Shown here: positions 30,780-53,371 of the stretch, piece by piece | Numbering within the stretch: position 1 is the stretch's first letter | How the letters are laid out: each line of letters starts with the position of its first letter | Source of the DNA: an uncultured Clostridium sp. | GTDB lineage: Bacteria; Bacillota_I; Bacilli_A; RF39; UBA660 | DNA length: 64,000 nucleotides | Direction: 5' to 3' | NCBI GenBank assembly: GCA_964589375.1 | Contig: CAZPSA010000001.1 | Coordinates: 1,410-65,409 of the forward strand | Position numbers and translations under genes: made by a program | Notes under the pieces: model-generated | Seen by the model: only the letters and a program-made list of their open reading frames with translations | Database searches by the model: none | What the model was told of the DNA's origin: nothing

Positions 30780-30789
30780 ATAACCTCCA

Positions 30790-34051: not shown

Positions 34052-34095
34052 TGTTTCTCCTTTCTAGGTATACTCTAAAGCGGGAATAGTGTTAA

Positions 34096-34236: not shown

Positions 34237-34249
34237 AAAAGGCACTCTC

Positions 34250-34396: not shown

Positions 34397-34446
34397 TTAT
34401 ATAATCTCCTAACTTTAGTTTTTCACTTTTCCCGCTTTTTAAGTAT

Positions 34447-36075: not shown

Positions 36076-36084
36076 AACCTATCC

Positions 36085-36978
36085 TTATATTTCTTTTATT
36101 TTATTATTTAAATACTCAATATTTCCAGTTAAATCATCTGTACGAATAAAAGTATATTTATTTATTAAATAATCAAGTTCAATAGATTTTATAAAATCAG
36201 ATTTTTTTAAATCAAAATTATAAAGTAAATTATTTTTTATTTTTTTATAACTATTTATTTCTGGATTAAATGAGTTTTCTACACCTTTAGTACAAAAAAT
36301 AATTCCTTTTACAAGTCCCTTTTTACATATATTTTTTACATAATATCTTTCTTTTGTTAAAATCTCTTCATTATCAATATATTTGGGTTTTATCCCTCTT
36401 AATAAAGATTTTGTCTTTTCATTGGCATTGATTCCGCTAAATATACCCTCTACATAGATCGAATTATCTTTTTTATATATAATACACATGTCATCACTAA
36501 TTAAATTATAACCTTTATTTAAAATCATTCCTAAACTTATTGTGGACTTTCCAGCATGTTTCTCGCCAACAATTAGAAATGCTTCACCATTTTTTTCAAT
36601 TGCTGTTGCATGTAATATAATTAAATCTAATTTATTTTTATAATGTTCAGCTATTTTATTCATTACATATCTTCTATAACTATAATAACTATCATTATCA
36701 AGTGTAAGCATATAATTATCCTTATTATTTCTCAAAATAATATTATCACAACTAACATTATAGTCTAATATAATATTTTTTTTGAATACATCTATTTTAT
36801 TTTTATACATTATTTTTATATTCATTTTATCAATATTACTATTAGTATCGTGATATAATTCTTTTTTTAAAAAGTTATATATATTTAATGAATTTGTTTC
36901 AATTTTAAATTTGTCATCATCTATTATAAAGTAACATTTCTTCATTTTTAAATTCCTTATATTTATTATATTTTTCAT
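36085..36978 (-). CDS. HPr-kinase/phosphorylase-related kinase (HprK C-terminal-domain-like)
   Basis: LHATAIEKNGEAFLIVGEKHAGKSTISLGMILNKGYNLISDDMCII has the P-loop and following DD typical of HprK-related kinases seen in peptide-modification clusters. The start may be the internal Met at 36945. Confidence 0.65.
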   Translation of the reverse strand: MKNIINIRNLKMKKCYFIIDDDKFKIETNSLNIYNFLKKELYHDTNSNIDKMNIKIMYKNKIDVFKKNIILDYNVSCDNIILRNNKDNYMLTLDNDSYYSYRRYVMNKIAEHYKNKLDLIILHATAIEKNGEAFLIVGEKHAGKSTISLGMILNKGYNLISDDMCIIYKKDNSIYVEGIFSGINANEKTKSLLRGIKPKYIDNEEILTKERYYVKNICKKGLVKGIIFCTKGVENSFNPEINSYKKIKNNLLYNFDLKKSDFIKSIELDYLINKYTFIRTDDLTGNIEYLNNKIKEI

Positions 36979-37984
36979 TTATTGTATCATCTTCATCATA
37001 ATTTAATAATTTAAATTTAAAAAGTTTTTTTAATATATTACAATCACTAAATTCAGTACAACTCATATTACAAATATAATTATATTCACAATTTTTACAT
37101 TTTTTATTATTGCATTTTCCATTTAATGAGCATTTTTTGATCATCCCCAAATTATCAATATATATATACTCACTATTAAATCCACAATCTATATTTGGAT
37201 ATATACTTGGCCAATTTAGTACTTTTATATAATTTGAATAGTTATAACTATATTTCAAAATATACATTGAAATATTTATATATGAATCAACAAGTAGCTT
37301 AGTGTCAACAACCTGATTGATTTCATGAAATATAAATGGAGAAAAAATTAATCCTATATTATTATTAATACATTCGATACAAATTTTTTCCAAATCATTA
37401 TTTATTCTTGGTAAAACAGAAATTTTATGGTTTAATAAATCATTTTTATTTTCTATTATACTTTCAATTTTTTCAACATAAAAAACAATATTGAAAATAT
37501 TAAAATACTTAAATTTTTTTAAAATTTCAAAATTTTCAATTTTTGTGAAAATTGTTAAACTTGATGAAATATCATATATTTTATTAAAATAATTTTCCAA
37601 TAATTTTATATTTTCAAATTTTTCAATGTAAATAAATATTTTATCAACCAAACTACTATTTGCTATATTTTTTATACAATTATACACATTTTTTATTTCA
37701 TATGTTTTTTTTGTTAAATCTACAATGATTTTTTTCTCTAATGCTTTTGAAGATACAATGTAATCATCCAGATTGCTATTTTTAATATTTAAAAATTCTT
37801 CTTCAAATAAATATTCTAATGCTTCATTATATAATTCATTAGAATATTTATATTCTTTTAACTCAGCAATCAATTTTGCTATTTCATCGCTAATCAAAAC
37901 ATATTTATGATTTTTTAAATTCATCAATAAATATATTTCATTATCTATTTTTGACATTCTTACATCTTTACTCAAATAATACAT
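36917..37984 (-). CDS. PqqD/RRE-like N-terminus plus SPASM-type Cys-rich C-terminus, lacking the radical-SAM CX3CX2C motif
   Basis: The N-terminus SKIDNEIYLLMNLKNHKYVLISDEIAKLIAELKEY is RRE-like. The C-terminus is CGFNSEYIYIDNLGMIKKCSLNGKCNNKKCKNCEYNYICNMSCTEFSDC. No CxxxCxxC occurs anywhere in the 355 aa. Confidence 0.55.
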   Translation of the reverse strand: MYYLSKDVRMSKIDNEIYLLMNLKNHKYVLISDEIAKLIAELKEYKYSNELYNEALEYLFEEEFLNIKNSNLDDYIVSSKALEKKIIVDLTKKTYEIKNVYNCIKNIANSSLVDKIFIYIEKFENIKLLENYFNKIYDISSSLTIFTKIENFEILKKFKYFNIFNIVFYVEKIESIIENKNDLLNHKISVLPRINNDLEKICIECINNNIGLIFSPFIFHEINQVVDTKLLVDSYINISMYILKYSYNYSNYIKVLNWPSIYPNIDCGFNSEYIYIDNLGMIKKCSLNGKCNNKKCKNCEYNYICNMSCTEFSDCNILKKLFKFKLLNYDEDDTINEKYNKYKEFKNEEMLLYNR

Positions 37985-37986
37985 AT

Positions 37987-38682
37987 CTAATCCTCATCAA
38001 ATAATATCTTAAATAATTTTTCAGGGCATTCAAGCATCATTTTATATATAACAAAGTGTGATGTATCTTTATAATCCATGCGTTTTACCTCATCATCTAT
38101 ATATATAAAATCAGCATTTGGGTAAGACATTATAATAGGAGAATGCGTTACAACTATTATTTGGGTATCTTTTTGTTTTGACAGTTCATTTATTATACTT
38201 AATAATCTGAGTTGATTTTGAGGAGATAAAGCATTTTCCGGCTCATCTAACAAAAATATTCCTTCTTTAAAAGAATCAAATAATTCTAAAAAGCTTTCTC
38301 CATGAGACAATTCACTAAATTTTTTTCTATAATAAGCCAAAATTTGCGGATCGGATTCAATATAATTATAGTAAGAATTAAACGTATCACTTCTAAAATA
38401 AAAACCTTTTTTAGTTTTATATGACCAAGATAATTTTATGTCCTGTATTTGTCTTAAATTTTCTGTTGATTTATAATTACTATTTTTGTTTCCACCTAAT
38501 ATATTAAAACCAACATTGTCAGCTATATATTTTAAAATTGTTGATTTTCCACAACCATTTTCCCCAGATATTATTGTAACATTATTCTTAAACTTAATGC
38601 TAAAACCATCTTTGAATATTTTAATATTATATGGATAAGTATTTTCATTTTTCGATTCAACTGCTATTTCTTTAAGAATCAT
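37987..38682 (-). CDS. Stand-alone AAA/ABC-type ATPase (no permease domain)
   Basis: Walker A is ISGENGCGKSTILKYIA, Walker B is IFLLDEPENALSP, and the H-loop is VVTHSP. Confidence 0.7.
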   Translation of the reverse strand: MILKEIAVESKNENTYPYNIKIFKDGFSIKFKNNVTIISGENGCGKSTILKYIADNVGFNILGGNKNSNYKSTENLRQIQDIKLSWSYKTKKGFYFRSDTFNSYYNYIESDPQILAYYRKKFSELSHGESFLELFDSFKEGIFLLDEPENALSPQNQLRLLSIINELSKQKDTQIIVVTHSPIIMSYPNADFIYIDDEVKRMDYKDTSHFVIYKMMLECPEKLFKILFDED

Positions 38683-40201
38683 ATATGTTATTTCCTTTCT
38701 TTATAATTACTGGCTGCTCAGTATATGATATATGTTGAAGACTATTTGTAATTTTATTACCATCTATCTCATGTATAATGAAATTTAGTCCTACATTTGA
38801 GTTATAATTTATATCTAACTTTTCCATATCAATTTCAAATTCAAAGCTACCATTTTTTATATTTGGTTTAATATATTCTATTATTTTTGCTCTCTTTTCT
38901 CTTGAATAATCATATTTTACTTCATCTCTTCCAAGCATAGTTTCAGTCATAAATAATTTATCCTTTTTGATCCTTATCATTAATGGATAAAATGGTTTAA
39001 TAAATTCATTAAATGAATTTTTAAAATATAATTGAATATAAATTGCAAAATGGTCTGGTCTTTTATTATTATAGAAATCTAAATTTAAATAAAACTTTTT
39101 ATCAATGACTGTCAAACTATAATTTATGGGTTTATCCCCTAAATTTTTGATAAAACTTTCGTTGTTATTTAGATAATTTTTATTTGATGCTCCAATTAAG
39201 AACTCACTATAAGTATATTTACTTAAAAAATCAATAATTTCATCTTTAAAAAAATATCTATAAATCAAAGGGATATTCCATTTTATTCTACCAATATCTA
39301 CTAAGTCATGTTTCTTATAGTCAATTAATTCTTTTGGAAAAAAAGATAAAAATTCTATGATCCATTCTTCTTGATATATTTCATACATTCTCAAAAAAAC
39401 TAGTCTAATTTTATGAATCAACTTATATTTATGTGCATAATCTAGTATTTTATTCCAATCTAATAAATTATAATTTTTCTTAACAAAACAACATATATCT
39501 ACTAGATATTGCAAAATATATCTTTTTGAAAATTGTAAGGAAAAAATATTTTCAGTAAAATAGTAATAATAATTAATTAATAATAAAAATGTATTATTAA
39601 GGTCAAATGTTTTTACTTCCATTTTATCATATTGTATAATTTTTTGTTCACAATTTATATTATAAATCTGAGTTTTTTCACTATTCTTTAATTCTATTAC
39701 CATCTTTTGGTTGTCAAAAATAATTGGTAATGAAATTTCACCATGTATATTTTCTAAATTTTCATTAAAATCAAAATAACATTTGAATTTTTGTTTTATA
39801 ATTGAAATAAATTTTTGCTTTTCATAAGAATCATTTATAACAATATCTATATCAGAATACATTCTTTTATTTTGCTCACCATATATCAGAGTATTTAATA
39901 TTTTCCCTTTATATATACTATATTTTATATTATTCTCATTTAATAATTTCACAACTTCAAAGAAAAATTCATCGTATGTTTTATAAAATGACAGATACTT
40001 ATTTTTTATTCCCGTAATTACATTTTGATATGGTTTAAAAATATCTAAATCTATTATTTTTTCATAATAATGAAAAAATAATTTATGTTCAATTAGAATA
40101 TCAATAACTTCATCACAATCTATATATTTAATATCATCACCTAAACAATTTATATTGTCCTTAATTAATGAAATTACAAATTTATGATTGATATTTAACA
40201 T
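38672..40201 (-). CDS. Pol-beta-superfamily nucleotidyltransferase-like protein (the uncharacterised NTase family common in RiPP clusters)
   Basis: YKGKILNTLIYGEQNKRMYSDIDIVINDS fits the pattern hG-x(9-13)-DxD. It is the first gene of the cluster, at 509 aa. Confidence 0.55.
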   Translation of the reverse strand: MLNINHKFVISLIKDNINCLGDDIKYIDCDEVIDILIEHKLFFHYYEKIIDLDIFKPYQNVITGIKNKYLSFYKTYDEFFFEVVKLLNENNIKYSIYKGKILNTLIYGEQNKRMYSDIDIVINDSYEKQKFISIIKQKFKCYFDFNENLENIHGEISLPIIFDNQKMVIELKNSEKTQIYNINCEQKIIQYDKMEVKTFDLNNTFLLLINYYYYFTENIFSLQFSKRYILQYLVDICCFVKKNYNLLDWNKILDYAHKYKLIHKIRLVFLRMYEIYQEEWIIEFLSFFPKELIDYKKHDLVDIGRIKWNIPLIYRYFFKDEIIDFLSKYTYSEFLIGASNKNYLNNNESFIKNLGDKPINYSLTVIDKKFYLNLDFYNNKRPDHFAIYIQLYFKNSFNEFIKPFYPLMIRIKKDKLFMTETMLGRDEVKYDYSREKRAKIIEYIKPNIKNGSFEFEIDMEKLDINYNSNVGLNFIIHEIDGNKITNSLQHISYTEQPVIIKKGNNIYDS

Positions 40202-42143: not shown

Positions 42144-43271
42144 CTATTTCTGCCTATTTTTAAAATTTTTCAAAATTTTAATTAATGGACCCATAATTGG
42201 GTACTTTGAAAGATCTGAAAGTGTAGTTTTTATTGGATTTTCCAAATAATCATTTAATAATATAAAATATTTTTTATCATCATCATCTGCATATTCAATA
42301 TTTTCATTATAAAAACTTAAATACTCTTTTCTGTCGATTTTAAATAAAGATACTAACAAACATGTAATTAGAGTAAAATTCATTTTTTCATAATTCTTAA
42401 TTTTATCATTAACATCATTATATCTTTCTAATGCTACTAAAGCAACAGTTTCAAAAATTATAGCAGATTCTATTTCATAATCACTAAAATCAATAGATTT
42501 CAAATACAAAATTTGTTTCTCAGCTATATTAAGGCATTCATCATAATTTCCTATATACAAATAGGAACTCATAATTGTTCTATTTACTGAAATAATTCTC
42601 TTGAAATTTAAATCTTTATATAAAATATCTTGAGCACACTTCCCAAAAAAAATGGCTTCAATATATTTTTTTTCAGAATAACATTTAGATGCTACAATTT
42701 GATATGACATAGCATTTTTATAATTATGTCTCCATTCATCACTTAATATAATATCAGAATCAAAGAATAAATTTAATATTTCAAAAATTTCTTTTAATTC
42801 AAATATAAAGAAATCATAATACTTTTTTACATCTTCATATAATTCATAATAATTTTGCTTAACATATGATATTGACTTGTGATTATTTACAAGCATAAAA
42901 AGTTTTATTAATTTAATTACAGGAGCTAATAATGTATTTTCCCCTAGTAATTTATTTAAAAATGTTAAATCATCATCATACGAATCATAAATTCTGTAAT
43001 ACATATTGTAATATATTTCATTGATTTTTGATTCTAATAGTTCGACTAATGATGTCTCTGGAATGATAAATCCAAAATGATTGGATAATTGCTTTATAAT
43101 GTTTTTCCCAACTTTTTGTTCATAATCACGTGATCTTCTATATGAACTATTGTTGATAAATAACTCAGCAAATATTTCTTCTTTTCTTATATCATTTATT
43201 TTTAAATAAATATCAAAAAAATAAAAATATATTCTTGACCCTTTATATTCAGAAATATTAATTTTTTTCAT
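42144..43271 (-). CDS. Helical-repeat (TPR/RNPP-like) putative transcriptional regulator
   Basis: The protein is all-helical and repeat-like, with a possible N-terminal HTH. The SD AAGGAG lies 7 nt before the ATG at 43271, which I prefer to the track start at 43331. Assignment is weak. Confidence 0.35.
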   Translation of the reverse strand: MKKINISEYKGSRIYFYFFDIYLKINDIRKEEIFAELFINNSSYRRSRDYEQKVGKNIIKQLSNHFGFIIPETSLVELLESKINEIYYNMYYRIYDSYDDDLTFLNKLLGENTLLAPVIKLIKLFMLVNNHKSISYVKQNYYELYEDVKKYYDFFIFELKEIFEILNLFFDSDIILSDEWRHNYKNAMSYQIVASKCYSEKKYIEAIFFGKCAQDILYKDLNFKRIISVNRTIMSSYLYIGNYDECLNIAEKQILYLKSIDFSDYEIESAIIFETVALVALERYNDVNDKIKNYEKMNFTLITCLLVSLFKIDRKEYLSFYNENIEYADDDDKKYFILLNDYLENPIKTTLSDLSKYPIMGPLIKILKNFKNRQK

Positions 43272-43371
43272 AAACCACTCCTTATTAATATCTATAAGTA
43301 AAATTATATCATAATCATAAATAAATAACAAATAATAAAAATATATATCATAAGAAATTTACAAAAATTTC

Positions 43372-43403
43372 AACATAAAACGCAGTCAATTAATGACTAC
43401 GTT
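43372..43403 (-). terminator. Rho-independent terminator downstream of the nucleotide-enzyme operon
   Basis: The minus strand reads AACGTAGTCA-TTAA-TTGACTGCGTT (one G-T wobble) followed by TTTATGTTG. It lies ~265 nt after the last ORF. Confidence 0.45.
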
Positions 43404-43667
43404 AATGTTATTACTTAATTTATTTCTTAATAAAATTTTTCAATTCCTTCAATTTGACAATTTTTCAAACTACATATAAAATTATTCTTTGTTCCTTTGG
43501 ATTGATTAACAGCATCATCAATTTCCATAATTATAATATTTGTTTTTTATTAGCATCACAAATAGTATTTATTCTAAACTTATTTTAACACTCAATTTTA
43601 ATTATACTTTCTCTTTTTGACTTAATAAGTTCTAACACGCATAGCAAATGCTCATAGTAAACATCAT

Positions 43668-44126
43668 TTATAAGTTGCAAATATATAAAACTAAAAAAAC
43701 TATGAAACCTATTAATCCAGAGAAAAAGAAAAATCCGTAAATTAATTTAAGAATCCTTGACCAACTTGGATGCTTTTTTGCTGTTTGTGATAATGTTTTC
43801 ATATTATACTCTGTAAAATTAAAAACGCATTTTTCATTTTCTATATTTAATGATTGTTCTATCTTTTGCAAAACATGTTCAGAAGATTTAATCATTTGTC
43901 TCATTCGATAATCCATTAAATAAAAACACACTGAAAAAAAACTTATAGATAGAGATGCAAACAATCCAATTAATCTATTTAAATTGGAAGAAAGAATAGC
44001 TAATAAGCCAGTAACAAATAAACTTTCAATAACAATGCAAAAATTCAAAACTTGAATTCGTTGAGAAGCATGTATTTCAAAATGTTTAAGCGCATTATCC
44101 ATTAAAATTTTATCTTTTTCATCCAT
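43668..44126 (-). CDS. 152-aa three-TM membrane protein, last gene of the operon (candidate effector)
   Basis: The TM segments are VLNFCIVIESLFVTGLLAILS, LIGLFASLSISFFSVCFYLM and ILKLIYGFFFFSGLIGFIVFLVLYI. It overlaps the upstream kinase gene by 8 nt. Confidence 0.7.
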   Translation of the reverse strand: MDEKDKILMDNALKHFEIHASQRIQVLNFCIVIESLFVTGLLAILSSNLNRLIGLFASLSISFFSVCFYLMDYRMRQMIKSSEHVLQKIEQSLNIENEKCVFNFTEYNMKTLSQTAKKHPSWSRILKLIYGFFFFSGLIGFIVFLVLYICNL

Positions 44127-44682
44127 AAATATTATTCCTTTTTATGATATTTTCTATTTCATTAATAATATTGTCCAATTTTTTCATTCCATTTATAACT
44201 ATCCAAGAAGAGTCATTAGAAACAATATTCATATACTCTTCTCTTACTTTATATAAAAGTAATTTATCTTTTTCAATATTATCAGGATTTATTGCACGAC
44301 TCAAGCTTTCTTCTGGTGTAATATCTATAAAAATTTTTAAATCTGGTTCTGGCATATCCTTTTCTAACAAATACATCAATTCTCTATCCAATCCTCTTGC
44401 AATCCCATATGCAATGGCAGAATATTTATATCTAGTAGATATAACAACGTTATTTTCAGATAATGCAATTAATTTATTTTTTTTACTTAACCTTTCACAA
44501 GAAAATAGTAATTGTAAAGATAAGGGGTCAAATTGTTTTTCATATAATTTTAATTTTATTAATTTACCTATATCACTATTATAATCCGGAAAATCAATTA
44601 TTACATAATTATTCTTTAATAACAAGTGTTGTGCAATTGTATTTTTACCACAATTATCAATTCCTTCTAAAACTATTAACAT
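44119..44682 (-). CDS. Thymidylate-kinase-like P-loop kinase, type I (eukaryote/virus-like), with atypical motifs
   Basis: LIVLEGIDNCGKNT is the P-loop, with GKN where GK(S/T) is usual. FPDYNSDIGKLIK and LLFSCERL fit a type I dTMP kinase. STRYKYSAIAYG carries TRY in place of DRY. Confidence 0.65.
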   Translation of the reverse strand: MLIVLEGIDNCGKNTIAQHLLLKNNYVIIDFPDYNSDIGKLIKLKLYEKQFDPLSLQLLFSCERLSKKNKLIALSENNVVISTRYKYSAIAYGIARGLDRELMYLLEKDMPEPDLKIFIDITPEESLSRAINPDNIEKDKLLLYKVREEYMNIVSNDSSWIVINGMKKLDNIINEIENIIKRNNIYG

Positions 44683-44683
44683 C

Positions 44684-45262
44684 TCATTTAATCTCCTTCA
44701 TTTTTTTTACAAAATAATCCACATCATCATTATTGTTAACATCCAAGTTACTTATATCAATAACTGGTATATTATATTGTTCAACTACTTCATTAAACAT
44801 GTTATCTAAATCAATAATATAATTATAAGAATTTAACTCACTTTCCCTATTTCTCATTTTAATACGATTAATTAATTCAACAGAATTACAGTATAAATAT
44901 ACAACATTAATATCAATAAGTTCTAATATATTTTCAAATAATGAATTACAAATTTGGAATTCTTCTGCTGACAATATGTTTTTATTAAACATATATTTTG
45001 TAAATACTAGATGGTGTGAAAGTATAGATGAATCAATCAAACATAATTGCTTACATGATTGTGACTTATTATATAATTCAATCCAACTAATATAAAATTC
45101 TAACTGAGTAAAAAAAGCATTTTGTCCTGTTTTCCAATATTCATTTAAATGTGTTACTGCAGTCAAGTCTTCACATATAACATTATACCCTTTTTGAGAT
45201 AAAACTTTTCCCCAAGAAGTCTTTCCACAACCAATATTCCCCATCAAAACTAAAGGTTTCAT
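44684..45262 (-). CDS. Deoxynucleoside-kinase-like P-loop kinase
   Basis: LVLMGNIGCGKTS is the P-loop, QLEFYISW is dNK-like, IDSSILS replaces the usual DRS motif, and RIKMRNRESE is the Arg-rich lid. Confidence 0.6.
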   Translation of the reverse strand: MKPLVLMGNIGCGKTSWGKVLSQKGYNVICEDLTAVTHLNEYWKTGQNAFFTQLEFYISWIELYNKSQSCKQLCLIDSSILSHHLVFTKYMFNKNILSAEEFQICNSLFENILELIDINVVYLYCNSVELINRIKMRNRESELNSYNYIIDLDNMFNEVVEQYNIPVIDISNLDVNNNDDVDYFVKKMKEIK

Positions 45263-45813
45263 TGCTCATTACCTTGAAATGCTATTTTTTTTGCCAAAGA
45301 TAATGTTTGTATTATTAATTTTTTAGCATTCTTGTTATATCGTATTGATGAAGGATGGTATGTACAAATTAAAACTGAATCTTTATAATTATAAGTATTA
45401 TCAATCAAATCAACTAACTTAACAGTTTTATCATTTAAAAAGAATTTAGAAGCAGCTAAACCTAAACAAATTATAACCTTGGGCTTAATTATATCTATTT
45501 GCTGTTTAATATATGTAGAACATTTATCAATAATTTTCCCAGTTGGCGTGGCATTATGAGGCATTCTACATTTTATAATATTTGTTAAATATAATTTTTC
45601 TCTTTCTAAATTTGATTCTTGTAAGCAAGCATCTAAAATGGCTCCACCTTTCCCTATAAAAGGGCGTCCATAAATATCATTCAATTCTCCCGGTCCCTCT
45701 CCAACAATCATTATTCTAGAATCAATAGGTCCTTCTCCTGGAACAGTGTTTATTCTAGTTTTACATAACTCACATTCTACACATAATTTAATTTTTTCTA
45801 TTACTTCTTTCAT
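45259..45813 (-). CDS. Family-4 uracil-DNA glycosylase-like protein
   Basis: CVECELCKTR...VGEGPGELNDIYGRPFIGKGGAILD...IIKCRMPHNATP...CTYHPSS. This gives the GEGPG motif, the PF(I/V)G.(A/G)G motif, the HPS motif and the Fe-S-type Cys pattern. Confidence 0.75.
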   Translation of the reverse strand: MKEVIEKIKLCVECELCKTRINTVPGEGPIDSRIMIVGEGPGELNDIYGRPFIGKGGAILDACLQESNLEREKLYLTNIIKCRMPHNATPTGKIIDKCSTYIKQQIDIIKPKVIICLGLAASKFFLNDKTVKLVDLIDNTYNYKDSVLICTYHPSSIRYNKNAKKLIIQTLSLAKKIAFQGNEQ

Positions 45814-46298
45814 ATACCCTCCTTTTCAATTCTTAGTAACTTTAATTTTAATAATAATTCATGTTCATCACAATATATGCCTAAGGATTGTTTTAATCCA
45901 CCAGCAATGAATTGATCAACATAAAATGTTTGATTGTCAACACCTCTTTTATTTGGATCCGGAATCGTTTTTAATCTAATATCAGTAATTAATCCAATGC
46001 AACCATAATATTTCTTAGAGTTTACATATTTTGATAAGCAGTCCATAAAACCTGATTCCCACATTGTTCCATTATCAAGCGAAATTCTACACAAAAATAC
46101 ATTACACTTCAACAATTCTTCAATATCACAATTATAGATTTTTTCTGAAGTTATATCACCTCTTGTTTTATCATTTATTGAATCATTATCATTTGGACAA
46201 TAGACTTCAAACCCCTCGGATAAAAATAAATCTCTTAGATAATGATTATAATTAATATCATTTGTACAAAACATGGGTCCTCCAATATAAATTTTCAT
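45810..46298 (-). CDS. Nucleoside 2-deoxyribosyltransferase family protein
   Basis: MKIYIGGPMF starts the protein, and DNGTMWESGF carries the catalytic Glu context. The SD GGGAGGA precedes the ATG at 46298. Confidence 0.75.
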   Translation of the reverse strand: MKIYIGGPMFCTNDINYNHYLRDLFLSEGFEVYCPNDNDSINDKTRGDITSEKIYNCDIEELLKCNVFLCRISLDNGTMWESGFMDCLSKYVNSKKYYGCIGLITDIRLKTIPDPNKRGVDNQTFYVDQFIAGGLKQSLGIYCDEHELLLKLKLLRIEKEGI

Positions 46299-46322
46299 AT
46301 ATCCTCCCAAAAATTTAAATTT

Positions 46323-47615
46323 TTAAAAAATTCTCTTACCTTTTACATATTTAGCCAAAATATTTTCATTAGTAGATAGATAAATTAACCGTTGCAATCT
46401 TTCTTCTATACTTAAATCACTAAAATATTTTAAACTACTATCATCTAATACTAAAGCATCAAATTCATAATTTTCTTCAAAACTTCCCACATTATTTGAG
46501 AAAAATTTTCCCCCACCTTTAGTTGCAATATAAAACGCTTCATTAAAAGAAAGAGGTTTGTAATTTGAATCCACATATTTATAATACATTTTAGAAGTTT
46601 GAATCGCACTAACAATTGCTTGAAACATAGATAATGAATGACCCCCACAAATATCAGTACCCAATCCCACATTTATATCTAAGGATAAGTACTTTTTTAT
46701 TGGTGCTAATCCAGATGTTAAATTAATATTAGAAGATGGACAATGAGCAATAAAAACTTTATTGTTTTTCAACAACTCAATTTCTTTGCTCGGTGAATAA
46801 ACACAATGAGCCATAATTATCTTCTTTGTATCCGAATTCATAGTATTATCATCCAAAATTCCGGTTTTTTTAAATATTTCCCCAATGCAACAACTATAAT
46901 CATGAATAGTCCTGACAGCTTTTATTTCACTCAATGTCTCAGACATATGAGATTGTAGTGGTAGTTTATATGTTTTGTATAGTTCTCCTATTTGAAAAAT
47001 CATTTTTTTTGTACACGAGGGAATAAAACGAGGTGTTATTATAGGAAAAGTTCTAGAAAACTTATGTAAATTGTTTTCAATCCATTTTCTTGTATCAAAT
47101 AAAACACATTCTGTGTCATCACCATCATAATTAACATAAGAATCGTTATCCATATTTACCAAACCTACATAGCTAACAATACCACTATCTTCCATTTGTT
47201 TCATTAACAATTCAGTTGCTTCTATATGTGCAGTAGCAAAAATAACTGCTCTCGTAGTAGCACTTTTCTTTAATTCATCCACGAATAAAGAATATACTTT
47301 TTTAGCATATTCAATATCTTTAAATTTACTTTCTTCATTATATATATATTTTGAAAGCCATTCCAACAATTCACAATCTAGATTAATTCCCCTATTATTA
47401 TATTGTGATGCATGTAAATGGAGATCAATCATACCAGGAATTATTATTTTGTCATTATAATCAATAATTTCATAATTTTGATATTCAATTGGGATCCGAG
47501 AAAATACTCCCTTGCATATTCCTTCTTGACAGACCACATAATTATTTTGAAAAATTGATAAATTTTTTTTCCCTGTTGAAAAACAAATATTACCTTTAAG
47601 AATAAAATTGTTCAT
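46323..47615 (-). CDS. Guanine-deaminase-type amidohydrolase
   Basis: Motifs are PGMIDLHLHASQY (HxH), QSHMSETLSE, MAHCVYS, AHCPSSNINLTSG and GLGTDICGG. Confidence 0.8.
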   Translation of the reverse strand: MNNFILKGNICFSTGKKNLSIFQNNYVVCQEGICKGVFSRIPIEYQNYEIIDYNDKIIIPGMIDLHLHASQYNNRGINLDCELLEWLSKYIYNEESKFKDIEYAKKVYSLFVDELKKSATTRAVIFATAHIEATELLMKQMEDSGIVSYVGLVNMDNDSYVNYDGDDTECVLFDTRKWIENNLHKFSRTFPIITPRFIPSCTKKMIFQIGELYKTYKLPLQSHMSETLSEIKAVRTIHDYSCCIGEIFKKTGILDDNTMNSDTKKIIMAHCVYSPSKEIELLKNNKVFIAHCPSSNINLTSGLAPIKKYLSLDINVGLGTDICGGHSLSMFQAIVSAIQTSKMYYKYVDSNYKPLSFNEAFYIATKGGGKFFSNNVGSFEENYEFDALVLDDSSLKYFSDLSIEERLQRLIYLSTNENILAKYVKGKRIF

Positions 47616-47759
47616 ATGACACCTTATAGTTCTAATATTTTTTAACCAAAATATTTATTGTAAAAATTAGTATTATAAATATTATTTTAAATAATCTTAA
47701 TTAATTAAGCAACATTTAGTATTTTTGAATATTTTATGACTTTAATAAAACATCTTACA

Positions 47760-48833
47760 TTATTTATAAATAAGATCTAAAGATTCAAATCTAATATTGT
47801 TTATAATTGTTCGACATTCTGGATAACCAGTACAACCAACAAACCACTTTTCGTTATCATTATTAAAACGTATTGCTAACAAATTATTACATTCAGGACA
47901 TGTGTAATACATTTGTTCAACATAATCAGCCCTATGTACATTCTTGCTAAAAGTTAACCATATAACTTTTTTTGCTCCATTACTATATAAAACTCTTGTA
48001 ATAGTACATAATGTCGCACTTGAAGTCAACACGTCATCCACTAATAAAATAATCTTATTGTTTATATTTATATTTGCATTTATACTAAAGCAATCCTTCA
48101 TTATCGCCATCTTCTTATCATAGCTCAATCCTTTTGTTTCCTTATAATCTTTTTGTAATATGACAGGATTAGTATTACATAATTTTTCAAATCTATCTTT
48201 TTTATTTTTTCTACATGGAACATATGCGACTAAATCATAACTGAATAAGCCAAGAGATATAAAGTAATCCAAGCAATTTTTATAAAACATTTTAGTTTTG
48301 TCATCAGCATATTTACATTTAATGATTTTTGATGAATAAATGTTTAAATTATCATTTGAATAATCTTTAGGAAAATATCTACCTATTGAATAATGATCAA
48401 CTGTTTCAATACAAAAATTATCATTTTCAAATAAAATATTATATATTTCAGTAGTTTTTATATAAGAAGTTTCTTTATTTGAAGGAATAATATAATTATT
48501 ATAAACATATGACTCGCCATAAAGTGAAATAATTTTTTTTGATATAAAATCTTCTACAGAACGAACTTTAGCGTCTACTTGTATTTCATCAGATTTCCAG
48601 ACTAAATCATCAGTAATTTTAACCATTATAGGAGAATATAATTTTCCATCAATAGTATATTTAGTGTTATTATTTCCCCTAGTCAAGAAAATAATTTTAT
48701 AAAATAAATATGATTTAGTATATTCTTTATAATCCATATAATCTTTTACTACATCAAAGTTTTTATATTTATTTGTAATATCAATAAACTCTTCAGTTTG
48801 TATTGTGCTTGCATCTAATATTATCCTTTTCAT
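47760..48833 (-). CDS. ComF-type phosphoribosyltransferase with an unknown ~140-aa N-domain and a C-terminal topoisomerase-type C4 zinc ribbon
   Basis: The PRPP loop is KIILLVDDVLTSSATL, and a ComF-like DLVAYVPCRKNKKDRF is present. The C-terminal CPECNNLLAIRFNNDNEKWFVGCTGYPEC is a Zn ribbon. Confidence 0.7.
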   Translation of the reverse strand: MKRIILDASTIQTEEFIDITNKYKNFDVVKDYMDYKEYTKSYLFYKIIFLTRGNNNTKYTIDGKLYSPIMVKITDDLVWKSDEIQVDAKVRSVEDFISKKIISLYGESYVYNNYIIPSNKETSYIKTTEIYNILFENDNFCIETVDHYSIGRYFPKDYSNDNLNIYSSKIIKCKYADDKTKMFYKNCLDYFISLGLFSYDLVAYVPCRKNKKDRFEKLCNTNPVILQKDYKETKGLSYDKKMAIMKDCFSINANININNKIILLVDDVLTSSATLCTITRVLYSNGAKKVIWLTFSKNVHRADYVEQMYYTCPECNNLLAIRFNNDNEKWFVGCTGYPECRTIINNIRFESLDLIYK

Positions 48834-49717
48834 TTTTTATATAACTCCAATATTAATTTTAATAATTCATCATAATTTTCAAATTTATACACTAAATTAT
48901 AATCATTTTTAAATTTTGTTGGCCAACTATTGTTTGGATTGATAAATACATTGTTCGGGACAAATAATGGTCTTCCATTTTTTAAAGTACTTCTTGCTTG
49001 ACTTATTGTCCCGCTTGTATCACTTGCTTCAATTACAATTGTAGCACTAGAAATAGCACTCATGACATAATTTCTTCTAAGGAAATTCCATTTTAGTGTA
49101 TTTTCAAAAAAAGCATATTCTGTAACTAATAATCCATATTTTCCTATATAGTTTTGCAATTCCATATTCTTTTTAGGATAATATTTTCGCAATGGAGTTC
49201 CAATGACTGCTATTAATTTTTTATATCCTTTTTTTGCCACCTCATCATGTGTAATATAGTCCACACCCTCTGCTAAACCCGAAACAATTGTTATATTATT
49301 GTGAGCTAAAAAATTTGCAATTCTTTGAGCATTTCTAACACCAGTTTCACTTGGATGTCTAGTACCAACAACACTAATACTTTTCTCATTTAACAATTCT
49401 CTATTTCCGTTATAGAATAATACAATAGGACATTCATCTACCATAAACACTTGATGTGGAAAATCGTTATCTTTAAAATACATAATTTTACCATTAATAT
49501 TTTCATCAAAAACACTATTTGCATTTTCAATTATTTTTTCATTAACGTTCTCGTATAAATCTTTTATGTCTCTCGACAAAATTAAAGAACACTTTTCGAA
49601 AGATTCATCAATATAATCATAATACTTAAGAAATATATTTCTAGCTTTTGATCTATTAGATTTTACCAATTGCAATATTATAAAATAATTAATTATTCTA
49701 TTTTTTCGTGCTTGCAT
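48830..49717 (-). CDS. DprA/Smf-like Rossmann (SLOG superfamily) protein
   Basis: ISVVGTRHPSETGVRNAQRIANFLAHNNITIVSGLAEGVDYITH...IAVIGTPL..YYPKKN...FLRRNYVMSAISSATIVIEASDTSGT matches DprA motifs. The SD AAAGGAG precedes the start. Confidence 0.8.
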   Translation of the reverse strand: MQARKNRIINYFIILQLVKSNRSKARNIFLKYYDYIDESFEKCSLILSRDIKDLYENVNEKIIENANSVFDENINGKIMYFKDNDFPHQVFMVDECPIVLFYNGNRELLNEKSISVVGTRHPSETGVRNAQRIANFLAHNNITIVSGLAEGVDYITHDEVAKKGYKKLIAVIGTPLRKYYPKKNMELQNYIGKYGLLVTEYAFFENTLKWNFLRRNYVMSAISSATIVIEASDTSGTISQARSTLKNGRPLFVPNNVFINPNNSWPTKFKNDYNLVYKFENYDELLKLILELYKK

Positions 49718-49875
49718 AAAATAACTCCTTTCTTAAGTATATAATATTTTTCAAAGCAAAAAGAAGGTGCCTGCGGAACATAATCCAGACCGGGAGCCAA
49801 ACTATTCATATAAGAGAATTCCCCTATGCTCATCAGCATTAAAGCTTCAGTTATTTTTTTAACTATTGCTTTCAT
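49693..49875 (-). CDS. 60-aa protein with a very strong SD, overlapping the dprA-like start by 25 nt
   Basis: AAGGAGGTG is followed after 6 nt by the ATG at 49875. The peptide begins MKAIVKKITEALMLMSIGEFSYMNSLAPGLDYVPQAPSFCFEKYY... No motif recognised. Confidence 0.45.
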   Translation of the reverse strand: MKAIVKKITEALMLMSIGEFSYMNSLAPGLDYVPQAPSFCFEKYYILKKGVILCKHEKIE

Positions 49876-49965
49876 ATGAACCACCTCCTTTTGACATTGC
49901 ATAATGTCTTATGCATTATAATTATATCATATTTTGTATTTTTTTAAAATATAAATACTTAAATT

Positions 49966-50163
49966 TCATAATAACAGTTTTTCGATAGTAACATTTAATA
50001 CTTCTAATAATTTTCCTATTTTATTTAAATTATGCAAACATATATCAGCTTCCCATTTATATATAGTTTGTCTGCTAACTCCTATTAACTCAGCTAATTC
50101 TTCTTGACTAATTTTTTTGCTTTTTCTAATTGTTTCTAAATTAGTACTAAAATTAATTTTCAT
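49966..50163 (-). CDS. Xre-family helix-turn-helix regulator (ImmR/CapH-like)
   Basis: LETIRKSKKISQEELAELIGVSRQTIYKWEAD is a classic Xre HTH. It overlaps the upstream peptidase gene by 11 nt. Confidence 0.8.
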   Translation of the reverse strand: MKINFSTNLETIRKSKKISQEELAELIGVSRQTIYKWEADICLHNLNKIGKLLEVLNVTIEKLLL

Positions 50164-50638
50164 ATAAATACTTTTTTATATACTCTTCCACAAGTCTTTG
50201 AAATTTTTTATCTTCATACTTGAAAAATATATTATATCTTATTAAATAAAACTGACTAAAAGCAAAAGCGTCAAGTTCAATTGCTTGCAATGAATAATCA
50301 TTATATTCATTTGAATTTACGTCAATATTAGCCGAAGATTTAGCCTGTGCTAGTTCTTCTTTCCATATTCTAGCAAGTTTGTCATTCATTAGATTAGCGT
50401 AGTATATTTGAAATATGTGCCTCATTTCATGAGTAATACATTTAGCTGATTCAATAAAGTTATTTTCATATTTAATATTTATTACAATTTTAGGAATAGA
50501 TTTTAGTAGTAATCTACTATCATCTACTTCTAAATTTTCGTATTCTATTGGTATTAAATCAATACCTAAGTAGTCTGCTACTTCTTCTGATAATTTTATT
50601 AATTTGTGTTTTATATCTATCATTATTACTTCCTTCAT
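50153..50638 (-). CDS. ImmA/IrrE-family zinc metallopeptidase (CapP-like)
   Basis: CITHEMRHIFQ is the HExxH motif, with a downstream E...DAFAF segment (LQAIELDAFAFSQFY). Confidence 0.75.
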   Translation of the reverse strand: MKEVIMIDIKHKLIKLSEEVADYLGIDLIPIEYENLEVDDSRLLLKSIPKIVINIKYENNFIESAKCITHEMRHIFQIYYANLMNDKLARIWKEELAQAKSSANIDVNSNEYNDYSLQAIELDAFAFSQFYLIRYNIFFKYEDKKFQRLVEEYIKKYLYEN

Positions 50639-50656
50639 TTAATATTTTATAAAGTC

Positions 50657-50665
50657 ATTATATCA
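50657..50665 (-). promoter_or_regulatory. Extended -10 promoter element (TGATATAAT) for the peptidase/HTH-led operon
   Basis: The minus strand reads TGATATAAT, with a weak -35 (TGGAAT) 17 nt upstream. The ATG is ~20 nt downstream. AT-rich DNA makes chance matches common. Confidence 0.35.
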
Positions 50666-50685
50666 TAAACAAAAATGTTATTCCA

Positions 50686-50723
50686 TTAAAAAATAAGAAG
50701 AGACTTACCAAATATCTCTTCTT
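50686..50723 (-). terminator. Rho-independent terminator insulating the operon from upstream transcription
   Basis: The minus strand reads AAGAAGAGA-(11-nt loop)-TCTCTTCTT followed by ATTTTTTAAT. Confidence 0.5.
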
Positions 50724-51040
50724 ACTTAGTTTATTTTTATAAGGTTTTTATGTTCGACGCACTGAGGTTAAGACTAATTATGACCTTTATACTGTCTTTC
50801 CACACTCTATGTCTATAGCCATCTTCAGTTATTATAAACGTAGAATACCTGCATTTATGCCTAAAATGTCCTATTTTTATGGTGTTTTCCTCTATTTTTG
50901 GTATGTAAGTTACATACTCCTCACATGTGTCATTACGACAAAAAGTGAATTTTTATGAGTTTATAAAACAAAAAGTGTTAAATGTTACTTACAGTATTCA
51001 TAACCTAATATTAATATTTGAATAAAAGACTATTTATTAT

Positions 51041-51430
51041 TTATAATTCTATGTTATATTCTTTACATTTTTCTATTGATAAATCATGATCTTGTAGAGC
51101 TGATTTTTTATACCAATATTTTGCTTTTTCTAAATCCTTTTCTCCACAAAGACCTTCTTCATAAATCCAAGCTAAGTTACATTGTCCATCTCTATCTCCA
51201 TGTTCAGCAGAACGAGTTGTCCAATATAGTGCTTTTCTTAAGTCCTTTTCTGTTCCAATACCTTCAAGATATGCAAATCCAACTTGACATTCAGCTAACG
51301 CATATGATGTTTCTTCAGCAATAACTAGATATCCTTCAAACCATTTCTTCATATCTTTTTCCCAGTATTGATCTAAATCCAAACATCTATCTAATTCTTT
51401 ACATGGTTTATAATAACTACTTGCCATCAT
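51041..51430 (-). CDS. Sel1-like repeat (SLR) protein
   Basis: The repeats GFAYLEGIGTEKDLRKALYWTTRSAEHGD and NLAWIYEEGLCGEKDLEKAKYWYKKSA fit Sel1. Confidence 0.75.
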   Translation of the reverse strand: MMASSYYKPCKELDRCLDLDQYWEKDMKKWFEGYLVIAEETSYALAECQVGFAYLEGIGTEKDLRKALYWTTRSAEHGDRDGQCNLAWIYEEGLCGEKDLEKAKYWYKKSALQDHDLSIEKCKEYNIEL

Positions 51431-51846
51431 TATTTCTCCTCGTTAAATGCATTAGCCCAATAAAAAGGACTTAATTCTTCTAATGTTTTAAAAATTATTT
51501 CATTGTTTGGATTTGTTACTGCAACCTTAACATCTTTCCCCCAATAATATAATCTTTCTTGACATATACCACAAGCGGTAAGTATAGCAGGCATCTCATT
51601 TTCATTTTGTCTAGACATACACAACGAATGAGTGATATGTAAATTAAACTTTTGTGCTTCACACATCGCTCCAGTTTCCATACATAATTCAGCAGAAGCG
51701 TTAGGAGATTCTAAATATACACTAATTAAATATTCTCCTTCTTTAGTGTACATTATTGCACAACCACCCCATCCTGTTGGATATCTATGGTTTATAAAAA
51801 CTAATGCTTTATCATACATTTCTTGCCCAATTTTTATATCATCCAT
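51430..51846 (-). CDS. Cytidine/blasticidin-S-deaminase-like zinc deaminase
   Basis: ELCMETGAMCEA is a C-x-E motif and LTACGICQERL is a CxxC motif. The small ~138-aa size resembles homotetrameric CDA/BSD enzymes. Confidence 0.55.
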   Translation of the reverse strand: MDDIKIGQEMYDKALVFINHRYPTGWGGCAIMYTKEGEYLISVYLESPNASAELCMETGAMCEAQKFNLHITHSLCMSRQNENEMPAILTACGICQERLYYWGKDVKVAVTNPNNEIIFKTLEELSPFYWANAFNEEK

Positions 51847-51851
51847 AAATA

Positions 51852-52793
51852 TTAAATCTCCTTTACTATGTCTTTCACATTTTCATGAGTGCATTTATCT
51901 AAAAACTCATTAGTATCCATCCATTGAACAGATATCATTCTTTCTTCTTTAGGAATAGGATTTCCCTCTTCTTTTACATTAAAAAGAAATGGAACAATGG
52001 TTTTCCTAATTAATTTATTAGAAGGAGTTAAAAACTCATAAGAATACGATGTTAATTCTTTAACCAAATCATCTTTAGTAATAACAATATTTGTTTCTTC
52101 ATAACATTCTCTAATAGCTGTTTCAATTATTGATTCATTTTCTTCTTTATGACCTTTAGGCAATGATACTGTTTCTTTCCCATAAATCATTTCATTTGTC
52201 GAAAGAATTTTTCCATTACACATTACTACTGCCATTGCACTTAATTCGATTTTAGCTTTAGTAGGATTTATGAACTCTTCAATCATTGTTTTTAATTCAT
52301 CTACTTCTAAAATTGAATCTTTTAATTTTAAGTTATAGTTGTGTCTTTCAACACCTAGCACATGATTAGTGTATCTAGTGCTTTCAAACCATTTTTCAAA
52401 ACAAGGTATGAAATCAGGGGATTTTTTTGAATCACCATAAATCCCTATGATAAATAATCTTTTAACAAGATTTTCACATTTATCTTCGTTGTTCATAAAG
52501 TAATCTTGACATCTTTCATTTAAAACAAAATACAATGACGAAGGATTTCCACAATACATTGGAACAATAAAAACAACTTTTTGATAGTTAGGAATGTCAT
52601 CTAAAAGATTATAAATATCATCATTTCGATATTTACAACAATTATCAAAACATTCATAATCGCAATTACTGCAACTATTAACATTTAAATCTCTAAAATA
52701 TATAATTTTATCTTCCTCTTTTGCTAGATGTCTTGCAATTTCATCACAATTACCATCTTTTCTAGCTGAGAAACTAATTAATAATTTTTTCAT
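51852..52793 (-). CDS. Fusion of a flavodoxin-like (Cys-rich, iron-sulfur flavoprotein-like) domain and a NUDIX hydrolase
   Basis: The N-terminus MKKLLISFSARKDGNCDEI...CSNCDYEC...VFIVPMYCGN is flavodoxin-like. The Nudix box is PKGHKEENESIIETAIRECYEETNIV. Confidence 0.65.
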   Translation of the reverse strand: MKKLLISFSARKDGNCDEIARHLAKEEDKIIYFRDLNVNSCSNCDYECFDNCCKYRNDDIYNLLDDIPNYQKVVFIVPMYCGNPSSLYFVLNERCQDYFMNNEDKCENLVKRLFIIGIYGDSKKSPDFIPCFEKWFESTRYTNHVLGVERHNYNLKLKDSILEVDELKTMIEEFINPTKAKIELSAMAVVMCNGKILSTNEMIYGKETVSLPKGHKEENESIIETAIRECYEETNIVITKDDLVKELTSYSYEFLTPSNKLIRKTIVPFLFNVKEEGNPIPKEERMISVQWMDTNEFLDKCTHENVKDIVKEI

Positions 52794-52816
52794 ATTGTAC
52801 TCCTTGCTCGTTAGGG

Positions 52817-53260
52817 TTATTGTCTATTTAGTACTACCAAAATCTTATTATAATCATTCCATAATCTTTCATCATTTCTAATGTCATAATATTTCTTAAG
52901 AACAATATTATCAAAGATATCATTATATATGGCACCATCTCCAATATAAATATCATCATAAGACCTTATAATCCAATTCAATTGCTTAAATGTTATGTCT
53001 ATCACGAATCCATCAACAACGAGCCATTCATGATTAAATTTGTTTTCTGGAACGCCATCATCATAAAATCCATTATACCTTTCTACACGAAAATCATAAT
53101 TTTTTTTAAGATAATACCAAAGTAAATCACAAGCATCGTCACAACAACCTATTGGAAAGTTTGACATTCTATCCTTTCTCTCAAACAATCCACTAAACTT
53201 TACTTCTATTATTGAATTATAAAATTTATTTACAATTGAATATAGTTCATTAAATTTCAT
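52817..53260 (-). CDS. Hypothetical protein with a possible papain/transglutaminase-like Cys-His-Asp core
   Basis: GCCDDACDLLWYYL, NHEWLVVDGFVIDIT are spaced like a Cys...His...Asp catalytic arrangement. The SD GGAAGGA precedes the ATG at 53260. Assignment is weak. Confidence 0.35.
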   Translation of the reverse strand: MKFNELYSIVNKFYNSIIEVKFSGLFERKDRMSNFPIGCCDDACDLLWYYLKKNYDFRVERYNGFYDDGVPENKFNHEWLVVDGFVIDITFKQLNWIIRSYDDIYIGDGAIYNDIFDNIVLKKYYDIRNDERLWNDYNKILVVLNRQ

Positions 53261-53371
53261 ACAAAATCCTTCCAATATTATGTCTTACTTTTTTCATTTT
53301 TGTCATCAATAATTATAACATTTTTCATATTATTAATCTAATATTTTAAATAATAAAAATATTTTATTTTG

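Follow-up and report, generated by a model that had tools for sequence, protein, structure and literature searches.

Organization of the locus

The DNA analyzed here (the window) is a 64,000-nt stretch of contig CAZPSA010000001.1 from an uncultured Clostridium sp., and all window positions are those of this whole stretch. The region under study, positions 43668–50638, consists of eleven consecutive open reading frames (ORFs) on the minus strand. These comprise a regulatory head, a gene pair of the ShosTA defense type, and a cassette of nucleotide-metabolism genes that ends with a gene for a membrane protein. The features are listed below in the order in which they lie on the minus strand.

50639–50936, minus strand: conserved leader of the head, with a hairpin and U-run at 50686–50723 and a −10-like TATAAT directly upstream of the HExxH gene
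50153–50638, minus strand: HExxH zincin-like protein of 161 amino acids (aa), putative protease partner of the Xre regulator, with HEMRH at residues 70–74
49966–50163, minus strand: Xre-type helix-turn-helix (HTH) regulator of 65 aa (HTH_3, 1.9e-13), overlapping the HExxH gene by 11 nt
49693–49875, minus strand: small ORF; the conserved head closes with its first ~40 codons
48830–49717, minus strand: ShosA, DprA-like antitoxin (PADLOC ShosA, 2e-66; Pfam DNA_processg_A, PF02481, 1.5e-53)
47760–48833, minus strand: ShosT-like phosphoribosyltransferase (PRTase), putative toxin (Pribosyltran, PF00156, 1.4e-7; C-terminal Zn_ribbon_Top1, 3.8e-9)
47616–47759, minus strand: 144-bp spacer between ShosTA and the cassette, free of terminators, which may hold an internal promoter
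46323–47615, minus strand: guanine-deaminase-type amidohydrolase, lineage-specific first gene of the cassette (Amidohydro_1, PF01979, 4e-41)
45810–46298, minus strand: nucleoside 2-deoxyribosyltransferase (NDT), core of the cassette (Nuc_deoxyrib_tr, PF05014, 6e-12)
45259–45813, minus strand: family-4 uracil-DNA glycosylase (UDG; TIGR00758, 156 bits against a cut-off of 125.3)
44684–45262, minus strand: divergent deoxynucleoside kinase (dNK; PF01712, 9e-21)
44119–44682, minus strand: dTMP-kinase-like kinase (TMK; TIGR00041, 102.6 bits against a cut-off of 83.25)
43668–44126, minus strand: 8xMP membrane protein with three transmembrane segments (PF24838, 1.2e-7), overlapping the TMK gene by 8 nt
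43379–43403, minus strand: intrinsic terminator closing the unit, the sole terminator-like site in a scan of 43000–51200

The ORF coordinates are exactly those of a preliminary description of this DNA, and profile searches agree with the families assigned there. Neighboring genes overlap by 4–25 nt at 50153–50163, 49693–49717, 48830–48833, 45810–45813, 45259–45262 and 44119–44126, as had been noted. The two proposed boundaries of the unit also hold. The downstream terminator is found by the scan (43403–43379), and the upstream hairpin with its U-run at 50686–50723 is visible both in the sequence and in the predicted fold. The scan missed the upstream hairpin, whose loop in the fold is above the 8-nt limit of the scan.

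The 144-bp spacer displays no stable structure (folding z-score +1.34). It has an AAGGTG ribosome-binding site and a promoter-like TTAAGA-17-TATAAT at 47700–47672, which is not significant in this AT-rich DNA; the promoter scan as a whole is uninformative here, i.e. 91 sites were found against 73 expected. The three modules are probably read from a single promoter. Comparison of the whole region with phage records by blastn gave trivial matches only. In one strain of the window species an insertion sequence element of the rve family lies between the dNK and TMK genes and splits the cassette (locus L012, positions 3067–4041; L-numbers designate homologous loci gathered from other genomes and contigs for comparison).

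Separate occurrence of the head, ShosTA and the cassette

The head spans positions 49756–50936, about 1.2 kb, and displays 87–97% nucleotide identity by blastn to L146–L151. Its left edge is at 50927–50936 in L146, L147 and L149–L151, and the main match in L148 stops at 50701. At the other end homology terminates between 49754 and 49942, depending on the locus. In loci that retain the small ORF the break is at 49754–49756, which is inside the 3′ end of the ORF and marks the junction with the cargo. The stretch MKAIVKKITEALMLMSIGEFSYMNSLAPGLDYVPQAPSFC of the small ORF is common to the window, L148 and L149, and the tails differ. The 60-aa ORF of the preliminary description is a conserved peptide of about 41 aa, with a 3′ end that has been remodeled at a recombination junction. 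Copies of the head are found at different chromosomal sites, at positions 8688–9706 of L146, 8921–9870 of L148, 9692–10868 of L149 and 9697–10682 of L151.

Homologues of the HExxH protein with 85–94% protein identity are present in other gut Bacillota contigs. Each is followed by the same 65-aa Xre protein and then by cargo on the same strand, which varies. In L146 and L147 the cargo is a type II CBASS (SAVED, SMODS, ThiF, JAB), and in L149 and L150 it is the PADLOC candidate PDC-M49A/B followed by a dCTP deaminase (2e-120), so that L149 has two unrelated systems in series behind one head. L151 has an endonuclease-type effector, and L148 has unknown genes after the head, which is itself downstream of Gabija. 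The sharp homology edges, together with the differing cargo in sister loci, argue that the head is a distinct unit whose cargo can be exchanged. It looks like a small mobile platform for defense genes, and it probably controls whatever cargo follows. A head of this kind can serve as a marker for finding new defense systems in these Bacillota. In L146 and L149 a tyrosine recombinase gene is found at the far end.

The conserved leader has a folding z-score of −1.96 and no match in Rfam. A separate copy of a 244-bp stretch of it (window positions 50688–50930) is found at 5059–5302 of L148, just upstream of the Gabija pair. This stretch, which ends in a strong hairpin with a U-run, may act as a leader or attenuator, encode a small RNA, or serve as a site of recombination.

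The HExxH family has few members, with 101 representatives among 1.84 billion proteins. Across 34 relatives, Q77, E121 and D123 do not vary at all, and H70, E71, R73, H74 and A126 hardly do. The HEMRH motif and the sequence E-L-D-A-F-A-F with the invariant E121 give a zinc site with a downstream glutamate ligand. The protein had been assigned to the ImmA/IrrE peptidases, and this assignment fails: the ImmA/IrrE model (PF06114/COG2856) has no match to it in Pfam, NCBIfam or PADLOC, and no match of PF06114 is found among the 34 family members, which display weak similarities to DUF3920, DUF6782 and SprT-like models. A profile search gave no PDB relative of the family, and the single-sequence AlphaFold model is unusable (predicted local distance difference test score, pLDDT, 43). 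What does stand of the proposed ImmA/Xre gating is that the HExxH/Xre pair precedes immune operons, in copies that are 85–94% identical. The Xre protein also matches the PADLOC capH model (1.5e-5) and control-protein models.

The arrangement resembles CapH/CapP, ImmR/ImmA and DdrO/IrrE in pairing an HTH repressor with an overlapping HExxH protein directly ahead of immune operons, including CBASS. CapP is defined by a C-terminal GAF sensor, CapH by a C-terminal oligomerization/cleavage domain, and the pair by divergent orientation. In contrast, the 161-aa protein of the window has no GAF domain or linker, the 65-aa HTH protein has no C-terminal oligomerization/cleavage domain, the pair is on the cargo strand rather than divergent, and the family does not match PF06114. 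By analogy, the pair probably works as a switch of the CapH/CapP or ImmR/ImmA kind.

The second block had been taken for a known system of the DprA-PPRT type, and this is confirmed by the strong ShosA match: the pair is ShosTA. DefenseFinder lists the type as Shosta and Rst_DprA-PPRT. The PRTase has weak but consistent similarities to the PADLOC models ShosT (1e-6) and PsyrT (1e-7), and it matches phrog_16932 at 3e-20. PF00156 spans residues 245–322 and includes the phosphoribosyl pyrophosphate (PRPP)-binding loop VDDVLTSSAT. The DprA-like gene overlaps the PRTase gene by 4 nt, and the gene order is that of DprA–PRTase pairs that occur alone, without head or cassette, in the Geobacillus/Thermus phage phiOH2 (with a regulator on one side and the terminase on the other), in a P2-like Burkholderia phage (adjoining attP) and on a Sphingobium plasmid. 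The window and phiOH2 PRTases are 26% identical, zinc ribbon included. Unlike ShosT, the window PRTase bears a C-terminal Top1-type zinc ribbon, and its fit to the ShosT model is weak. Profile searches gave no family match over its residues 1–190, where E. coli ShosT has a pyrophosphatase-like hydrolase domain.

ShosT, a PRTase toxin, binds PRPP and disturbs purine metabolism; on its expression, xanthine is one of the metabolites that change most. The DprA-like antitoxin ShosA binds single-stranded DNA and RecA, and the two genes alone are enough for defense (PMC11961720, PMC12961424). ShosTA is known as a toxin–antitoxin system of abortive infection, and in the window the PRTase toxin would similarly perturb purine metabolism and the DprA-like antitoxin would counteract it.

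The comparison covered about 150 loci in all; about 130 of these surround relatives of the NDT at 47–72% identity, and their same-strand neighbors were clustered and representatives annotated. It bears on the proposal of the preliminary description that all eleven genes form one integrated system, gated by ImmA/Xre, in which the DprA/PRTase pair and the nucleotide module act together. The genes do lie on one strand, without a terminator from 50686 to 43403, and their arrangement is unchanged in every contig of this species. In addition, ShosT expression changes xanthine, and the gene that follows the ShosT-like one here is a guanine deaminase. However, among these loci the two blocks are found together in this species only, ShosTA and the cassette each occur alone elsewhere, two unrelated systems stand in series behind the head in L149, and L021 and L064, which have no ShosTA, combine the NDT cassette with a deaminase. 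Since head, ShosTA and cassette each occur apart from one another, the single-system reading is rejected; we regard it as very improbable.

The cassette and its relatives

The best PDB match of the window deaminase is chain 2I9U (6e-111), deposited as “cytosine/guanine deaminase related protein”. PDB chains named guanine deaminase rank next, and human GDA matches at 2.7e-67. The score against TIGR02967 (guanine deaminase) is 305 bits, which is below the 375 cut-off. The closest homologues, with 51–54% identity, are chromosomal guanine deaminases in unrelated contexts.

The NDT ORF extends over 45810–46310 when it is read from a TTG codon; the likelier start is the ATG at 46298, which gives a protein of 162 aa. 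The gap between the deaminase and NDT genes is accordingly 12 nt or 24 nt. Residues Y4, G6, G7, F10, D75, G77, E81 and G83 are invariant, and the sequence displays an N-terminal YxxGxxF and the motif DxGTMWExG, which includes E81. The best fold matches of the predicted model (pLDDT 81.8) are solved bona fide NDTs, with template-modeling scores of 0.58–0.65. Motifs and model together indicate an NDT fold with the catalytic glutamate, and transferase activity is predicted.

The UDG aligns to the T. maritima enzyme 1L9G at 1e-39 and keeps the GEGPG and HPS motifs. Cysteines are present in its sequence; family-4 enzymes are expected to have a cysteine cluster with an iron-sulfur role. The dNK has a weak match to the Mycoplasma deoxyguanosine kinase 2JAQ, and the best PDB matches of the TMK are the P. 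falciparum and vaccinia TMKs. Both kinases carry unusual motifs wherever the four genes NDT-UDG-dNK-TMK occur together (termed type A). The dNKs have DSS (DNT in L064) where those of other architectures have DR, and the TMK in all copies has GKNT for the usual GK(S/T)T and TRY for DRY. The type-A kinases may, on these sequence changes, have altered substrates or be binders rather than enzymes.

The TMK also matches the B model of the PADLOC candidate PDC-M51 (4e-13). No neighbor matches the A component even at E-values up to 10, and identity of the cassette with PDC-M51 was therefore rejected.

Type A is found without ShosTA in L001–L003, L058, L021, L064 and on a conjugative element of gut bacteria. 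The 8xMP gene is part of it in the window species, L001–L003 and L058, and is missing in L021, L064 and the conjugative-element copies. The conjugative element carries ParA/ParB/RepA_N, a type IV secretion system (T4SS) coupling protein and a serine recombinase, and its NDT has entries in 646 index blocks of the collection (343 contigs). In L004–L007, L059 and L060 (about positions 10001–12216) the cassette is located between RepA_N/DUF6017/DUF6050 genes and DUF3801/T4SS coupling protein genes, and no 8xMP gene follows. Because the element is seen in hundreds of gut metagenome contigs, the function of the cassette matters for the dynamics of phages and plasmids in the human microbiome.

Other relatives of the NDT are found in three further settings. 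In type B, the NDT and dNK genes are followed by a gene for a ~510-aa protein of one similarity cluster, and extra P-loop kinase-like genes are often located downstream. This arrangement is present at 17 loci with 13 distinct NDT sequences, and both of the ~510-aa members that were scanned (L055, L098) carry a C-terminal CAP12/Pycsar TIR domain. Type B looks like an undescribed system of Bacillota, Acidobacteriota and others. Examples are L055 (10001–13528), L098 (1451–5238), L076 (3010–7812) and L008 (9992–13857), with 13 more loci; L070 in addition has an HD/HD_assoc dGTPase-like gene.

In type D (L096, L054) the order is NDT-dNK-Ham1-SIR2. The last two genes encode homologues of proteins of the Kongming system, in which KomA is an adenosine deaminase, KomB an inactive HAM1 protein acting as sensor, KomC a SIR2 NADase, and dITP the messenger (Kongming preprint). 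The L096 Ham1 protein matches KomB (PDB 8ZSG) at 3e-56 and has the KomB-type Asp-to-His change (“VEHTGL”), and the SIR2 protein matches KomC at 6e-78. The NDT relatives that stand with a dNK beside KomB/KomC or TIR proteins are 50–64% identical to the window NDT. In other bacteria the core enzymes thus have as neighbors immune effectors with a proven role in cell suicide. L096 (5797–8284), L054 (10188–12221) and L095 (392–3240) are Kongming-like operons with NDT and dNK in the place of KomA; in L095 a TIR-NB-ARC protein comes after a dNK-NDT-Ham1 block.

Type C comprises NDTs of Thermomicrobiales that are located among cytidine deaminases, a sirtuin, a thioesterase and a peptidase, in what looks like ordinary chromosome. 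In L028–L053 and many metagenome loci (e.g. L106, 2205–7123) from Thermomicrobiales/Chloroflexia, the NDT has sirtuin and thioesterase genes on one flank. On the other flank are cytidine deaminases, in one to three paralogous copies, together with an HTH protein and an M14 peptidase. The ancestral salvage setting of the NDT subfamily may have been of this kind.

An alignment-based scan did not find the NDT subfamily of the cassette in IMG/VR viral contigs, and a phage DNA-modification module was for this reason rejected as an explanation. Scans of IMG/VR for ShosT-like, HExxH and 8xMP proteins gave nothing as well, but their single-protein patterns are very strict and they carry no weight.

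Homologues of 8xMP with 30–43% identity are found on plasmids in three settings. In Klebsiella and Pseudomonas the gene is the last of a CBASS operon (phosphorylase, CD-NTase, two accessory genes, 3′-5′ exonuclease, 8xMP), in Pantoea it is ahead of a nucleosidase–NACHT pair, and in the third setting it is ahead of a gene for a ~950-aa PDC-M60A-like protein next to integrases. The homologues of proteobacterial plasmids are at L138 5001–5450, L139 4992–5453, L137 5001–5447, and L140 and L142 5001–5453. Presence in CBASS operons and beside a NACHT system marks 8xMP as a defense-associated membrane protein; literature searches on this family gave nothing relevant.

Although the window amidohydrolase is specific to its lineage, deaminases are also found with other copies of the cassette. 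L021 has a 152-aa deaminase of the cytidine deaminase (CDA) fold directly upstream of the NDT on the same strand. In L064 a CDA-fold deaminase, 44% identical to that of L021, is convergent just downstream of the TMK; its best PDB matches are B. subtilis guanine deaminase (9e-34) and plant guanosine deaminase. Three of the five type-A lineages thus have an adjacent guanine-type deaminase, of two unrelated folds (amidohydrolase and CDA), which argues that the deaminase belongs to the cassette. Such adjacency is very unlikely to arise by chance, since a genome usually has about one such gene. No other finding supports as strongly the idea that a base would be deaminated and then exchanged. That the amidohydrolase is a resident housekeeping gene caught between insertions was considered and rejected: it lies inside the variable cargo, and unrelated deaminases flank two other cassettes.

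Predicted chemistry and comparison with known systems

The interpretation that we favor, with moderate confidence, is that the locus is a composite defense island in which a mobile head, ShosTA and an undescribed cassette are separable, and that the cassette makes a non-canonical deoxynucleotide. In this pathway the deaminase would supply an oxopurine base (guanine to xanthine), the NDT would graft it onto deoxyribose taken from a deoxynucleoside donor, the dNK and the TMK-like kinase would carry the product to the diphosphate, and host Ndk would form the triphosphate. Deoxynucleosides from host DNA degraded by a phage might act as the trigger by serving as NDT donors. The product may be an alarm that opens 8xMP, by analogy with dITP acting on KomB. 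It may instead poison DNA, with the glycosylase converting lesions to breaks, or it may do both. The purine route is favored because the deaminases are of the guanine clade and because sister systems have KomB as their sensor; in addition, the P. falciparum and vaccinia TMKs, which are the closest solved ones, tolerate dGMP. The deaminate, base-swap and phosphorylate route of the preliminary description has thus gained real comparative support (deaminases in three of five lineages, KomBC and TIR neighbors, the contexts of 8xMP), and its joint action with the DprA/PRTase pair has not.

Several observations weigh against the composite reading or its chemistry. ShosTA and the cassette have no terminator between them, so they may be co-expressed and may interact functionally. 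Both kinases deviate from canonical motifs, which makes their activity uncertain. Two of the five type-A lineages have no deaminase nearby, and the copies on the conjugative element and in L021 and L064 have neither 8xMP nor any other recognizable effector. In Thermomicrobiales the NDT is next to cytidine deaminases in a chromosomal setting that looks like ordinary salvage. The UDG motifs are the canonical ones for uracil and TMKs normally act on pyrimidines, so that a route through dU, dUMP and dUDP fits both enzymes better. Finally, the CDA-fold deaminase matches a deoxycytidine deaminase chain nearly as well (1.2e-31) as it matches guanine deaminases.

Another explanation is an ordinary deoxynucleoside salvage and repair operon, or one that serves the mobile element, with no immune role. 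Guanine deaminase, NDT, dNK and TMK would return bases and deoxynucleosides to the dNTP pool and UDG would remove uracil, to the benefit of replication in a gut bacterium or a conjugative element (e.g. under dNTP shortage). Each enzyme has a standard salvage or repair function, and the conserved context of the Thermomicrobiales relatives and the effector-free conjugative-element copies are as expected for such an operon. Salvage of the Lactobacillus type consists of an NDT plus deoxynucleoside kinases, i.e. the same enzyme families and predicted reactions, and the NDT model is closest to solved NDTs. The cassette differs in being located in mobile defense-cargo slots and on a conjugative element, with a membrane protein translationally coupled to the TMK that is otherwise known from CBASS and NACHT operons. 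Its slot holds defense systems in three sister loci with identifiable cargo, sister operons join NDT and dNK to TIR proteins or to KomB and the SIR2 effector KomC, and the kinases are divergent and unlike housekeeping ones. The NDT subfamily is also missing from viral contigs, where a general aid to replication would be expected. A salvage or repair role is therefore judged unlikely.

A second explanation retains defense and changes the chemistry. The deaminase would yield uracil or dU, which would pass through dUDP and dUTP into DNA, where UDG would create abasic sites and breaks; UDG would be the effector and 8xMP optional. Every complete type-A locus has a UDG, which the TIR and KomBC types lack. 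By TIGR00041 the kinase belongs to the dTMP kinases, and TMKs commonly accept dUMP as an alternative substrate. The UDG motifs and the deoxycytidine deaminase match given above favor this route, and UDG is also among the genes named as associated with KomBC in the Kongming preprint. On the other hand, the window deaminase clearly belongs to the guanine deaminase clade (2I9U), the CDA-fold proteins match guanine/guanosine deaminases best, the sister systems use KomB, which senses non-canonical purine nucleotides, and host dUTPase would oppose the route. We consider the uracil route quite improbable.

With the purine route retained, the cassette resembles Kongming in that a deaminase and nucleotide kinases would yield a base-modified deoxynucleotide, and in that NDT relatives (50–57% identity) and a dNK stand directly upstream of KomB/KomC homologues in L096 and L054. 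KomBC modules without KomA are associated with other nucleotide-metabolism genes, including UDG (Kongming preprint). The cassette nevertheless differs in several respects. The window has neither KomB nor KomC, its deaminase is an amidohydrolase of the guanine type (PF01979) rather than an adenosine deaminase of the KomA family (PF00962), the base would be attached by transglycosylation, both kinases are encoded in the cassette and none is borrowed from the phage, and a UDG and a membrane protein are added. By its gene content the cassette thus appears to be a Kongming-like form of nucleotide-based immunity which is not a member of Kongming.

RADAR includes RdrB, an amidohydrolase-type adenosine deaminase that makes (d)ITP, and dCTP deaminase and dGTPase are defenses that deplete nucleotides. 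These systems likewise rely on a purine or pyrimidine deaminase that distorts the deoxynucleotide pool in infection, and L149 has a dCTP deaminase in the equivalent cargo slot. In the window, by contrast, a free-base deaminase of the guanine type is combined with a transferase and kinases, which implies synthesis and not depletion.

No description of the cassette was found in the searched literature and defense databases, where the lone PDC-M51B match in PADLOC was the only hit, and literature on PDC-M51 and on the enzyme combinations of the cassette likewise gave nothing relevant. The claim that the composition is undescribed therefore applies to the cassette, the DprA/PRTase pair being the known ShosTA. 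The cassette is a credible new defense candidate with a mechanism that we infer from its enzymes and neighbors. If the mechanism is correct, it would represent a second synthetic route to an immune deoxynucleotide, by NDT base exchange instead of deamination of a nucleotide, and would add a second base, probably xanthine, to that of dITP. Such systems would encode the whole pathway, unlike Kongming with its borrowed phage kinase. One generator would be linked to three types of effector, which would also explain why KomBC operons are often found without KomA.

A broader proposal, which is tentative, is that NDT plus dNK is a widespread and hitherto unrecognized generator of immune nucleotides. 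It would make a non-canonical purine deoxynucleotide of the deoxyxanthosine or deoxyinosine series from the free base, by transglycosylation followed by phosphorylation, and would be combined across phyla with interchangeable effectors (the KomB-KomC NADase, TIR, or UDG with 8xMP). The UDG/TMK form, with its own deaminase and two kinases, would be self-sufficient and would reside on a conjugative element very common in the human gut.

The DNA on either side of the region has other gene clusters. Upstream of the head, positions 51041–53275 hold another small nucleotide-flavored gene set: a Sel1-repeat protein, a blasticidin-S-deaminase-like protein (3B8F, 2e-42), a flavodoxin–NUDIX fusion and a 152-aa protein whose sole match is a PHROG of unknown function. 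Positions 27705–40201, of low G+C content (19–25%), contain a cluster resembling those for ribosomally synthesized and post-translationally modified peptides, with radical SAM, S8 subtilase, two ABC transporters, an HPr-kinase-like protein, NTP_transf_5, an AAA_15/21 ATPase and a sigma factor. L149 and L150 also have a cluster like this one upstream of the head. Positions 18114–27320 are occupied by a single ORF of 3068 aa on the minus strand.

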